Source of the DNA: a virus
Taxonomy: Duplodnaviria; Heunggongvirae; Uroviricota; Caudoviricetes
DNA: 14,996 nucleotides
IMG/VR virus record: IMGVR_UViG_2713896798_000009
Strand: one strand, 5' to 3'
Every line of letters begins with the position of its first letter. The stretch's first letter is position 1. A model generated the notes under the pieces. It searched no databases. It saw only the letters and a list, made by a program, of their open reading frames with translations, and was not told the origin of the DNA. Below, one piece after another: positions 6,320 to 7,824 of this stretch. A program made the translations under genes and the position numbers.

Positions 6320-6344
6320 AATTTTTTTCACCCATAAAACACTA

Positions 6345-6364
6345 AAGGGGCTTTTTAGCCCCTT
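6345..6364 (-). terminator. hairpin between the capsid and protease genes, possibly a partial terminator/attenuator
   Basis: Minus-strand RNA has a 7-bp stem (aaggggc/gcccctt) followed by a U-rich tract, 18 nt after the capsid stop and about 25 nt before the protease start. Confidence 0.35.
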
Positions 6365-6374
6365 CTGTATGCTG

Positions 6375-7532
6375 TTAATCGTCGTCCTGTGGCAGTTCCA
6401 GAATCTTGATCGCGTTCGAATCCACCACGCCACCGCCTAAATATTTCTGCGTGAAAATTTTGATGAATCCTGGTTCTGTCAGGTTGTCCGGTCTGGTGCG
6501 AACACCCGTTTCGTGATCAACAATGTAGTAACCGCGTTTGAAGTCACCCAGGGCAATAACGTTATCCGGCATAAACTCCAGATATTCGACCGGAAGGCCC
6601 AGCAACGTATCAGGATCACCAGCCTGTAAACGGTCGCGCCAGATGTAATCACCGTTCGCGTTCTTCACCTTCTGAAGTTTTGCCGCCGTCGTGGAGTTAA
6701 CCACCCAGACCGCGTTTTTGCGGTATTTTTTACGTAATGCAAATTTCAGGTCGATCAGCGGGTCCGCAGATGTCCACGCAAGAGACTCAGAAGGCTTAAT
6801 TACCTGCAACGTACCAAAATCACGCTCTTTGTCGTTCTTCTCTGCACGGGGTACGGATAAAAAGCCTTTTGCTTTTTTGTCACCGTCGCCCACAACCAGA
6901 TCGCTTTCTTCGATTTCCGTGAAGGTGTCGCCAATCTCGCCCGTCAGCCATGAAAGGATGTCCACATCGGAAAAATCCACGATTTCCTGTGTGGTGCGCG
7001 GGTACGCATAGACCGGATACAGCTTAATGCTCACCTCGTTAATCTGCGGGGTGCTGGTCTGTTCGCGTGACTTACCCTCTTCACCGTGGTTAACGGTCGC
7101 ACCGCCAGCGGAAACAAGCTGCTTAAACTCGTTGCTGCTGATTTTCTTCACGGTACAGATGCGGCGCATGGTGGATTCATCCGCCAGCATTCGCATGATT
7201 TCGGTGTTCAGTTCAGGGATAACGGTATAACCACCATCAGCGGGGACACCTGTACTTAATGCGCGGGTTTCACCTGTCAGGATGTAGTTGCGGAGTTCTG
7301 CCGGGTCAGTGGTCTGGCTGCTTTTACCTGGCTTGCTGCGATCTTCGTCTGCAATGGCTTCAAGGCGGGAAATGTCTTTATCGAGGGATTCAGCTTTAGC
7401 GCGTAATTCGTCAAATTTTGCGCCCTCTGCATCGTTAAGGCTGCGGTTTTCTTTTTCCGCGTTCTCCAGCATGTCGCGCATCTGATTTTTAATGGCGGTT
7501 TTCTGCTGGCGTAATTCGATTATTCTCGGCAT
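6375..7532 (-). CDS. major capsid protein (HK97 fold) with N-terminal coiled-coil scaffolding (delta) domain
   Basis: Start set at ATG 7532 (MPRIIELRQQKTAIKNQ...); the ORF-track start at 7577 is TTG and lies inside a hairpin; charged coiled-coil-like N-terminal region followed by a capsid-like body. Confidence 0.9.
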   Translation of the reverse strand: MPRIIELRQQKTAIKNQMRDMLENAEKENRSLNDAEGAKFDELRAKAESLDKDISRLEAIADEDRSKPGKSSQTTDPAELRNYILTGETRALSTGVPADGGYTVIPELNTEIMRMLADESTMRRICTVKKISSNEFKQLVSAGGATVNHGEEGKSREQTSTPQINEVSIKLYPVYAYPRTTQEIVDFSDVDILSWLTGEIGDTFTEIEESDLVVGDGDKKAKGFLSVPRAEKNDKERDFGTLQVIKPSESLAWTSADPLIDLKFALRKKYRKNAVWVVNSTTAAKLQKVKNANGDYIWRDRLQAGDPDTLLGLPVEYLEFMPDNVIALGDFKRGYYIVDHETGVRTRPDNLTEPGFIKIFTQKYLGGGVVDSNAIKILELPQDDD

Positions 7533-7570
7533 AAAAAAAAGTCCTGGGGTTAAGTAAGGAACTCCAGGAC
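7533..7570 (-). promoter_or_regulatory. terminator-like hairpin plus U8 directly abutting the capsid start codon
   Basis: Minus-strand RNA: GUCCUGG, 16-nt loop, CCAGGAC, then UUUUUUUU, then AUG; no Shine-Dalgarno sequence between structure and start codon. Confidence 0.45.
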
Positions 7571-7740
7571 GCGGCAAAAACTCAACCGTTTTTCATAAGG
7601 AAATCAGCAATCGCACCGATCGTTTTCCCGCCTGGTAATGAATATTGGTGAGCACATTAACAGGCGGGAAAGTGGCCCCAGCGTCCTGGCACCACTGGCG
7701 AGAATAATCATGATTCAGGGCGGGTAAAATATGCCGATCC

Positions 7741-7775
7741 GGTCAATGAACAACGTGGAACGACCACGAACAAAT
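7741..7775 (-). promoter_or_regulatory. Copy M of the repeated TTGTTCCACGTTGTT motif, about 215 bp upstream of the capsid start
   Basis: 13-nt core at 7749-7761 matches 252-264 and the reverse complement of 13699-13711; an extended match of about 25 nt to copy R. Confidence 0.4.
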
Positions 7776-7790
7776 AATTTACAAAAAATT

Positions 7791-7814
7791 ACAAAAAGCC
7801 GGATTGCTCCGGCT
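7791..7814 (-). terminator. rho-independent terminator after the 74-aa gene
   Basis: Minus-strand stem agccgga/tccggcu with 4-nt loop followed by UUUUU; nearly identical to the hairpin at 8151-8168. Confidence 0.6.
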
Positions 7815-7824
7815 GTATGGGTGC

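Follow-up and report, generated by a model that had tools for sequence, protein, structure and literature searches.

The 14,996-nt window analysed here is an E. coli capsid-forming PICI (cf-PICI) of the CP-933C/EcCIEDL933 type. A 15-kb island inside the disrupted tqsA gene of E. coli FORC_028 is 100% identical to it. Pfam and PGAP annotation identified int, alpA and a primase gene as well as the island's own genes for an HK97-type capsid, protease, portal, connectors, HNH, TerS and TerL, and found no tail or lysis genes in the window. This gene content agrees with the published account of EcCIEDL933. Islands of this kind are reported to be very widespread and to spread via tail-less capsids and captured phage tails. 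Control of the packaging operon has not been described, the two main publications on cf-PICIs mention neither a promoter nor a terminator, and our literature search for transcriptome data on CP-933C or the capsid-leader locus yielded nothing usable.

The first gene of the packaging module encodes the HK97-type major capsid protein (6375-7532, minus strand). PGAP selects the ATG at 7532-7530 as its start, with a product of 385 aa, and the N-terminus read from it (M-x-[RK]-[IL]-[IL]-ELRQQK) is kept in more than 12 lineages. The in-frame sequence 5' of this ATG, including a TTG at 7577, shows no amino-acid-level conservation between lineages. Thus, the capsid start is secure, and the TTG was rejected as a start codon because conservation begins only from the ATG. 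A sequence-only reading of this stretch had placed the capsid start directly after a run of eight U residues, and both the PGAP call and the N-terminal conservation bear this out.

Layout of the capsid leader

All leader features described below lie on the minus strand, upstream of the capsid AUG. The preceding gene, encoding 74 aa, ends in a terminator-like hairpin, AGCCGGAGCAATCCGGCT followed by TTTTTG (7814-7797), which is predicted to insulate the leader from upstream transcription. Since the upstream gene has its own terminator, a control point within the leader, as had been supposed, is plausible. The leader itself begins with a conserved motif, TTTTGTAAATTAT (7786-7774), a candidate regulator or promoter element that is found in every lineage, Gilliamella and Photorhabdus included, and has a degenerate second copy at 7796-7784. 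It is followed by phased 10-bp repeats, TTGTTCGTGG TCGTTCCACG TTGTT (7773-7749). The repeats agree at about 26 of 28 positions with one segment (13687-13714, in the opposite orientation) of the array between int and alpA, and another copy is found at about 270-250. Their sequence is lineage-specific, and an island DNA-binding protein, either AlpA or Int, is a candidate to bind them. The alpA gene (13226-13414, minus strand) encodes a 62-aa protein with the Pfam Phage_AlpA domain, an island activator and the candidate repeat binder.

A scan for consensus sigma-70 promoters between 7533 and 7830 recognised none. Sequence inspection suggested a candidate -10 hexamer, TATTTT (7731-7726), and its counterparts elsewhere in the family read TATATT, TATTAT or GATAAT and are placed 19-30 nt before the first leader helix, stem A. 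The leader also has a TAAATT-like motif together with the repeats, in a layout unlike that of Q or Pseudomonas AlpA sites. The transcription start is probably within the leader, at a promoter under island control beside the 10-bp repeats, which the alpA regulatory region shares; both this promoter and the role of AlpA are suggested by the shared repeats.

The packaged form of the island, LR881103.1, begins at terS, which places cos upstream of that gene. The leader was therefore rejected as a cos site, and also as a replication origin, which is likely to be the region at 9426-9712, downstream of the primase gene.

A conserved leader RNA in nine genera

The main feature of the locus, overlooked in the sequence-only reading, is a conserved, covarying leader RNA upstream of a hairpin, hairpin C, that precedes the capsid AUG. 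Homologous leaders of about 190-260 nt (about 190 nt in the window) were found in relatives from nine genera, with homologous blocks in E. coli, Shigella, Citrobacter, Salmonella, Erwinia, Rosenbergiella, Morganella, Proteus and Xenorhabdus. From 5' to 3' they carry the conserved motif, the 10-bp repeats, a pair of helices that abut each other (stems A and B) and hairpin C, and the gap upstream of the capsid gene is 220-280 nt irrespective of the upstream gene.

Stem A (7696-7671) has the form A-GUGGU-g-CCAG-GACG-CUGG-g-GCCAC-U. Its GACG tetraloop is invariant, and three of the four pairs of its inner helix covary between lineages. Stem B, UUCCCGCCUG...CAGGCGGGAA (7670-7625), follows with a gap of 0-1 nt and occurs in at least six distinct sequence versions across lineages, each a perfect helix of 8-12 bp. 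A further hairpin D, GAUCGGU...GCUGAUU (7621-7602), is part of an inserted segment of about 50 nt, which only the E. coli/Shigella type has.

We evaluated the pairing of stems A and B across lineages. Stem B and hairpin C were registered by structure, as sequence-only alignment fails on both, and the pairing counts are inflated to that extent: 97.5% of cells were paired in stems A and B, compared with 77.7% in shuffles (the observed value was reached by 0 of 500) and 36-50% when the partners were slid, and 10 of 17 pairs had changed on both sides. RNAalifold on a plain MAFFT alignment of the leaders independently recovered the inner helix of stem A, again with three of four pairs changed on both sides. 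It was the only helix recovered from this sequence-only alignment, since neither stem B nor hairpin C shows sequence similarity from one lineage to another. We conclude that stems A and B are real helices. Several natural variants pair only as G.U on the sense (minus) strand, and the conserved structure is that of the sense-strand RNA.

A covariance model of stems A and B matched each island exactly once, in every case just in front of the capsid gene, with E-values from 5e-15 to 2e-6; the matches include six loci outside the seed. No Rfam family matched the leader at E <= 1. A search of true phages for both leader types found none, and the few matches were cf-PICIs deposited as phages, or fragments. 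The leader is previously undescribed and, with no Rfam match, one copy per island and a range of nine genera, is a clean candidate for a new RNA family.

Two simpler descriptions of the leader were tried and rejected. A rule that would put one or more terminators between the 5' motif and the AUG in every lineage does not hold for L108/L059 or for L111. Leader-peptide attenuation would use an ORF that starts at a conserved TCATG in some lineages; this ORF has no ATG in Proteus, Xenorhabdus or Erwinia, and the covariation of stem A alters the residues it would encode.

Hairpin C and a possible alternative partner

Hairpin C (7570-7541) is formed by GUCCUGG (7570-7564) pairing with CCAGGAC (7547-7541), and the U8 tract (7540-7533) directly abuts the stem and adjoins the capsid AUG. 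This direct succession of stem, U8 and AUG had been noticed before and is confirmed from the sequence. The 7-bp stem also stands as described, while the proposed 16-nt loop does not: three inner pairs (GUU/AAC) form within the 16 nt between the arms (7563-7548) and leave an apical loop of 8 nt. The predicted stability is -12.7 kcal/mol for the hairpin alone and -14.1 kcal/mol in context. The built-in terminator scan missed hairpin C because it accepts only loops of up to 8 nt and disallows interrupted stems.

The T8 is the longest T-run of the window with both strands counted, and an equally stable closed hairpin ends at 4.7% of random window positions. Within a single sequence, hairpin C is thus only mildly unusual, and it is conservation that raises it above chance. 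The arms were kept at all 64 fetched loci, which carry T7 (48 loci) or T8 (16 loci). They are also kept, together with U8, in the divergent L061/L110 lineage, where the capsid is 68-69% identical and the loop is identical at 7 of 16 positions. A natural CC to TT variant, present at five loci, turns hairpin C into a perfect 11-bp stem with an 8-nt loop; the L017 variant has a perfect stem of this length. Across all lineages, the hairpin has a predicted stability of -12 to -17 kcal/mol, its arm spacing varies from 16 to 25 nt, and folding leaves the region from -13 to +3 mostly paired.

The U-run is confined to the E. coli/Shigella lineage, with U7 in most relatives, and is absent from the Citrobacter, Salmonella, Erwinia, Morganella, Proteus and Xenorhabdus lineages. 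Unlike the U-run, the hairpin-before-AUG architecture is family-wide. Where the U7-8 is present, hairpin C and the U-run have all the sequence hallmarks of an intrinsic terminator located exactly at the start codon, so hairpin C is predicted to be an intrinsic terminator in that lineage. As had been argued earlier, any capsid transcript must read through this structure.

The claim that the capsid gene has no Shine-Dalgarno sequence was inaccurate. The 3' arm of hairpin C contains a weak core, AGGA (7545-7542), at a distance of 9 nt from the AUG and with a predicted anti-SD pairing of -4.0 kcal/mol. As the hairpin buries this weak element, the suggestion of unusual translational control is reasonable. 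The variant in which the U-tract serves as an S1-dependent translational enhancer is weakened, since the U-tract is lineage-confined and the hairpin before the AUG is family-wide.

The 5' arm of hairpin C has a second possible partner. The stem A apex, CCAGGACGC (7689-7681), is complementary to it, such that the extended arm, GCGUCCUGG (7572-7564), the predicted switching strand, can form either 9 bp with the apex or 7 bp with the 3' arm of hairpin C. The complementarity therefore defines two mutually exclusive folds. Its length is 9 nt (P = 0.0002) in the window type and, with a different sequence, 8 nt (P = 0.007) in the other type; these are the only two independent sequence versions, and a GACG/CGUC core is common to both.

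We then compared the folding of nascent transcripts and complete leaders; all structural and kinetic statements given here are based on thermodynamic prediction. For 12 of 14 lineages or variants, the alternative pairing reached probabilities of 0.73-1.0 in nascent transcripts, compared with 0.37 or less in the complete leader. The exceptions were Xenorhabdus (L107), with P = 0.09, and L111, with a partial P = 0.50. Shuffle controls folded in this way in 3 of 300 and 10 of 300 cases. From these results, an anti-terminator is predicted to be the first structure to form as the RNA is made, and to be displaced afterwards. In the window type, the final fold exceeds the alternative in stability by 10.7 kcal/mol, a gap that may displace the anti-terminator too fast for it to matter. 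The Citrobacter type has two folds of almost equal energy (-51.8 and -50.5 kcal/mol).

Proposed control of capsid expression by the leader

We tentatively favour a self-contained switch in the cis-acting leader RNA, in which hairpin C and the U-run form the output module that terminates transcription and sequesters the ribosome-binding site (RBS). The leader would probably switch capsid expression on and off by itself and not through a helper-phage factor. Stems A and B would be the conserved two-helix domain, and hairpin C before the AUG would bury the weak RBS. In the early fold, favoured while the RNA is still being synthesised, the stem A apex would pair with the 5' arm of hairpin C, leaving no terminator and a free RBS. 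The final fold, with stem A and hairpin C formed together, would be favoured once transcription has passed the 3' arm of hairpin C. In E. coli and Shigella islands, this fold would be an intrinsic terminator ending at the start codon, with transcription and translation both gated; in the other genera, where there is no U-run, the same architecture would gate translation only. The bias of the switch might be set by RNA polymerase speed or pausing, or by a protein or small ligand on stems A and B.

Features of attenuator-type systems are present, namely mutually exclusive pairings that have one strand in common and a conserved, covarying domain. The trp leader, T-box and pyr leaders, as attenuators or riboswitch platforms, similarly have a 5' leader with a conserved structured domain, one strand with two possible partners, and a terminator hairpin with a U-run directly before the regulated gene with the SD buried within; their anti-terminator also forms first during synthesis, as is predicted here. 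In contrast to these systems, most lineages of this leader have no U-run, so that only regulation of translation is possible, and the leader has no Rfam match and an unconserved candidate upstream ORF. P4 immunity (CI RNA with seqA, seqB and seqC) is another likeness: it belongs to a phage satellite and has three related leader segments, the middle one complementary to both others, and its outcome is premature termination, which is predicted here. However, the P4 system controls an early (replication) operon via a processed trans-acting RNA, whereas this leader precedes the capsid gene, has the geometry of a cis-acting switch and has no Rfam match of the C4/CI type.

A conserved, covarying leader that carries its own terminator/RBS switch would be the first element put forward as a candidate for the control of capsid production in satellites, and it may explain the reported basal, helper-independent capsid synthesis. 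A more speculative extension, which we rate as rather unlikely, is that stems A and B act as the sensor domain in a new riboregulator class specific to capsid-forming satellites. Their ligand would be a signal of cellular or phage origin, whether a protein, a metabolite or RNA polymerase itself, and the competition between the stem A apex and hairpin C would decide the commitment to capsid building. If true, this would be an RNA-level checkpoint and could explain why capsids are made with or without a helper.

A simpler explanation is a passive, leaky terminator or insulator, by which a fixed fraction of transcripts ends at hairpin C and translation is damped, giving a low constitutive level of the capsid operon with no switching. 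Stems A and B would then have another role, for example in RNA stability or processing. The canonical terminator characteristics of hairpin C, the strongly favoured final fold of the window type and the reported spontaneous, basal-level capsid formation by cf-PICIs (10.1101/2025.02.11.637232) are consistent with this explanation, as is the shifting position of other terminators of the leader region between lineages, which is insulator-like. However, it leaves unexplained the complementarity between the apex and the arm, kept with different sequences in two lineages, the RBS hairpin kept in lineages without the U-run, and the strong covariation and sequence invariance of stem A. We consider it unlikely on these grounds.

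Capsid expression had also been suggested to depend on a helper-encoded late antiterminator or activator. This is not supported, as cf-PICI capsids form without a helper: cf-PICIs, EcCIEDL933 and KpCIDSM30104 among them, are reported to make packaged capsids that lack tails when no inducing helper is present, even in a non-lysogen (10.1101/2025.02.11.637232). Helper dependence is also disfavoured by the candidate anti-terminator in the leader itself and by the island proteins, among which no Q-like family was found. More generally, a helper late regulator or the island AlpA could carry polymerase from a leader promoter through hairpin C and U8. A terminator lies immediately upstream of the first gene of the operon, as in the lambda Q (pR'-tR') and P. 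aeruginosa AlpA (PalpB-tB) systems, which likewise have a short leader before the first late or lysis gene and a DNA site array near the presumed promoter. The 10-bp repeats of the leader are common to the alpA regulatory region and one island end, and island induction requires alpA.

Against this, the island repeats sit differently relative to the -10-like element than in the Q and Pseudomonas AlpA systems, and they are kept in most lineages even though the U-run is missing there. The island AlpA is a 62-aa excisionase-type wHTH protein (PF05930). In a search of PDB sequences, its sole match was 8c3t, a 73-aa 'AlpA family' protein, with no Pseudomonas AlpA or Q chains. Pseudomonas AlpA is larger than 140 aa (about 150) and 21Q-like, with DNA-contact residues at 128-142 and a ring-forming N-terminal segment that it requires. 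The likeness is in name only, and the island AlpA was rejected as a Q-like antiterminator. Protein-dependent antitermination is therefore improbable. A role of AlpA as an ordinary activator of the leader promoter is plausible and compatible with a self-contained switch.

Processive antitermination of the HK022 put type would have stems A and B bind the transcribing polymerase, which would then resist hairpin C with U8 and later terminators. As in putL and putR, two adjacent stem-loops lie early in the transcript, upstream of an intrinsic terminator and in a packaging module derived from HK97/HK022-type phages, with no dedicated antiterminator protein gene; a further terminator-like site follows the capsid gene (6365-6344). 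We located putL and putR of HK022 via published primers. The covariance model of stems A and B (R1) had no match in HK022 at E <= 1, putL and putR included, and the leader has no Rfam match, no sequence resemblance to put and different helix sizes. The leader was therefore rejected as an HK022 put element. In the other island type, no sense-strand terminators were detected downstream of stems A and B, so that an antiterminator of this type would have nothing to act on there. Moreover, put works without alternative pairing to the terminator, unlike the predicted leader switch, and would leave the apex-arm complementarity unexplained. We give this mechanism little credence.

A stand-alone sRNA ending at hairpin C and U7-8, a terminus like that of Hfq-type sRNAs, would act in trans on transcripts of the helper or host, with the capsid expressed from read-through. 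A terminator hairpin with at least seven U residues is a canonical sRNA 3' end, the RNA body is highly structured and conserved, and one lineage encodes a ProQ/FinO-domain protein just upstream. Yet outside E. coli and Shigella the RNA is conserved with no terminator at this position, and in every case the element stays within 0-11 nt of the capsid AUG, which makes an sRNA very unlikely.

Finally, the inverted repeats might serve a dimeric regulator as DNA operators and not as RNA structure, given that CCAGGAC(GC) occurs three times in the leader (twice direct and once inverted), but the tolerance of G.U-only variants on the sense strand, the helices that stay paired while their sequences change completely and the variable spacing of the arms make this extremely improbable.

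Hairpin C and the start of the capsid gene

The hairpin and U-run upstream of the capsid gene form a real and functional-looking feature, which is best interpreted as the output hairpin of a cis-regulatory leader RNA newly recognised in capsid-forming PICIs (cf-PICIs). The window is a 15-kb cf-PICI whose main genes are all on the minus strand. Its sequence is that of the element inside the disrupted tqsA of E. coli FORC_028 (100% identity), and it shares ~97% identity with the copy in O157:H7, the element named CP-933C, OI-51 or EcCIEDL933. Pfam and PGAP assign genes for an integrase, AlpA, primase, SSB and a PerC-family regulator, followed by those for an HK97-type capsid, protease, portal, connectors, HNH, TerS and TerL. 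The packaging module opens with the capsid gene, preceded by a ~290-nt non-coding gap (7533-7824) that includes the terminator of the gene upstream of the leader (7814-7797, minus strand).

The positions assigned to the hairpin, T8 and ATG in the sequence-only reading were exact on sequence check. Hairpin C (7570-7541, minus strand) is followed by U8 (7540-7533) and the AUG (7532). This ATG is the true start, as it is used by PGAP and the N-terminus M-x-[RK]-[IL]-[IL]-ELRQQK is kept in every relative, while the in-frame upstream sequence is not. Folding added three inner pairs to hairpin C, leaving an 8-nt apical loop, with a free energy of −12.7 kcal/mol alone and −14.1 kcal/mol in context. 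The statement that no Shine-Dalgarno (SD) sequence is present needs correction, because a weak one, AGGA, is sequestered in the 3' arm, 9 nt 5' of the AUG (predicted anti-SD pairing, −4.0 kcal/mol). T8 is the longest T-run of the window. An equally stable closed hairpin ends at 4.7% of arbitrary window positions, and the evidence for hairpin C taken from this single sequence alone is weak.

Searches of genome, viral and metagenome collections, together with exact-protein look-ups, yielded ~110 loci encoding capsid relatives. Across the E. coli/Shigella lineage, both arms of hairpin C are essentially invariant, followed by U7 in 48 loci and U8 in 16, and a CC to TT variant (5 loci) makes the stem a perfect 11-bp helix. 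In L061 and L110, divergent E. coli loci with capsids 68-69% identical, the arms and U8 are kept with loop identity at 7 of 16 positions. A different hairpin, UGGUUUC...GAAACCA (−9 to −17 kcal/mol), is located at the same place in Citrobacter, Salmonella, Erwinia, Rosenbergiella, Morganella, Proteus, Xenorhabdus and another E. coli lineage. It likewise covers a weak ribosome-binding motif (GGA or GAGA), and CUCC, CAAC or CUUC stands between it and the AUG in place of a U-run. Thus, the conserved property is a hairpin over the ribosome-binding site, and the predicted terminator is an addition confined to one lineage. The Photorhabdus locus L109 (1870-2003) keeps the 5' motif and a terminator without stems A, B and C, and has another hairpin, GGUGUU...AACACC, whose last base directly precedes the AUG. 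Immediately 3' of the window capsid gene lies a terminator-like hairpin (6344-6365, minus strand), of which no equivalent was detected in two scanned islands of the Citrobacter type (L113 and L103).

A conserved leader RNA

Taken as a whole, the leader folds much better than shuffled versions of it (z = −5.2). In all lineages but Gilliamella and Photorhabdus, the elements occur in the same order: the TTTGTAAAT 5' motif, two to three phased 10-bp repeats, stem A (7671..7696), stem B (7625..7670) and hairpin C. The GACG tetraloop of stem A is invariant, and its inner helix, CCAG/CUGG in the window (E. coli/Shigella) type and CUCA/UGAG in the other (Citrobacter) type, was recovered by RNAalifold on an unbiased MAFFT alignment. 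The long stem B begins 0-1 nt 3' of stem A and exists in at least six unrelated sequence versions, each a perfect 8-12 bp helix. In a structure-registered alignment of 14 distinct leaders, stems A and B were paired in 97.5% of cells, compared with 77.7% in shuffles (0/500 as high) and 36-50% with partners slid, and both sides had changed in 10 of the 17 pairs; as stem B was registered by structure, these counts lean towards structure. Several natural single changes keep pairing only as G.U on the sense strand, indicating that the structure sits in the sense RNA.

A search with a covariance model built on stems A and B gave exactly one hit in each island, in every case just 5' of the capsid gene, including six loci outside the seed alignment. 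The rest of the window, HK022 and distant phage loci gave no hit. Rfam contained no match to the leader, and the leader was not found in true phages.

In L110 and L061, GUGG, the outer 5' strand of stem A, is missing from its normal position and recurs 14 nt further upstream, a change located ~45-75 nt 5' of the stem A loop. The outer helix is thus still able to form around the insertion, an unusual means of helix preservation. We also observed 11 nt of perfect complementarity between 7709-7699 (GAUUAUUCUCG, just 5' of stem A) and 7528-7518 (CGAGAAUAAUC, capsid codons 2-5). This pairing closes the entire leader in the predicted minimum-free-energy fold and is weakened to 7-8 bp in natural variants, without compensating changes.

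Predicted alternative pairing of the stem A apex and hairpin C

The stem A apex CCAGGACGC (7689-7681) is perfectly complementary to GCGUCCUGG (7572-7564), which is the 5' arm of hairpin C in its extended form; the first seven bases of the apex are also those of the hairpin's 3' arm. The other type keeps this relation with different sequences, stem A AGACGUGA pairing with hairpin C UCACGUCU. The complementarity exceeded that of shuffles in both the window type (P = 0.0002) and the other type (P = 0.007). When transcripts of increasing length were folded, the apex paired with the 5' arm at a probability of 0.73-1.0 in 12 of 14 lineages or variants, the exceptions being Xenorhabdus (0.09) and the E. 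coli locus L111 (0.50). This pairing is predicted to dominate from emergence of the 5' arm until the 3' arm is made, and to be superseded by stem A and hairpin C in the complete leader. Shuffling of the 5'-arm segment gave the same folding order in only 3/300 and 10/300 trials. The two complete folds are nearly isoenergetic in the Citrobacter type (−51.8 vs −50.5 kcal/mol), and the terminator fold is favoured by 10.7 kcal/mol in the window type.

The predicted arrangement is that of a terminator/anti-terminator (or sequestor/anti-sequestor) switch under kinetic control. In the E. coli lineage, hairpin C would be an intrinsic terminator and a sequestor of the ribosome-binding site at once, and the element opposing it would be encoded within the same RNA. 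The helper-encoded late regulator proposed previously conflicts with the report that cf-PICIs produce packaged tail-less capsids without an inducing helper, even in a non-lysogen (10.1101/2025.02.11.637232).

Two known systems with a similar layout, in which a terminator stands immediately before the first gene, are lambda Q at tR' and AlpA at tB in Pseudomonas. The proteins differ, however: the Pseudomonas one has >140 aa, a 21Q-like fold and an N-terminal segment that forms a ring, whereas the island AlpA has 62 aa (PF05930; sole match, PDB 8c3t). HK022 put shares the idea of two stem-loops but no sequence or model similarity, and no terminators were found 3' of stems A and B in the other island type. 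The three-part complementarity of the P4 CI RNA (seqA, seqB and seqC) follows a similar logic in a satellite, but that RNA controls early genes and acts in trans.

Two genes 5' of the capsid leader, one E. coli cf-PICI lineage (L111, 958-1488) encodes a ProQ/FinO-domain protein; members of this family of RNA chaperones bind terminator-type hairpins.

Putative leader promoter, repeats and other island features

No consensus sigma-70 promoter was found in the leader. Its 5' region carries the repeat TTGTTCGTGGTCGTTCCACGTTGTT (7773-7749), which matches ~26/28 positions of 13687-13714, in opposite orientation, within the int-alpA intergenic array of ~10-bp phased TTGTTnCACG repeats upstream of alpA (13687-13735). 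The array and the leader have a word in common at 7761-7749, and a 13-nt core of TTGTTCGTGGTCGTTCCACGTTGTT recurs at 264-252, near the other (attR) end of the island. A complete other-type island has an analogous arrangement with a different unit (TTCAT), and the phased repeat that comes after the conserved motif differs from lineage to lineage. The TTGTTnCACG-type repeats are candidate AlpA or Int sites. From these observations we infer that the leader contains a promoter under the control of an island-encoded protein, most likely AlpA. Only in the window island is the 5' motif tandemly duplicated, as TTTTGTAATTTTT (7784-7796) and then TTTTGTAAATTAT (7774-7786), 10 bp apart.

The best sigma-70-like promoter of the island, TTGACG-18-TATAGT (within 12430-12490, minus strand), heads the early replication operon. 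The perfect direct repeat GTGGGCCACACCT lies on either side of its −10 element and a hairpin follows, resembling an operator arrangement. Between int and alpA, a hairpin with A/T flanks (GGCATAAAACGAGATTTTATGCC) coincides in part with a weak Rfam match to the Brucella sRNA BSnc120 (13547-13628, minus strand; 29 bits vs a gathering score of 114, E = 0.002). This is probably a terminator acting in both directions rather than a homologue of the sRNA. The non-coding region 3' of the primase gene (9426-9712), where the PICI replication origin would be expected, gave miRNA-family matches at chance level only.

Within 8151-8447, the PerC-family (PchE-like) regulator gene has a canonical terminator (8168-8151) after it, with a stem almost identical to that of the next terminator, at 7814-7797. 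The O157 copy, OI-51, is known to modulate LEE expression via RgdR and Pch regulators. L113 (LR881103.1, 'Escherichia phage vB_KppS-Ant', 16.5 kb) is a cf-PICI recorded as the linear molecule that is packaged, with cos marked by its ends just 5' of terS. Its 766-aa gene after terL, annotated as tape measure, is probably accessory cargo or a misannotation.
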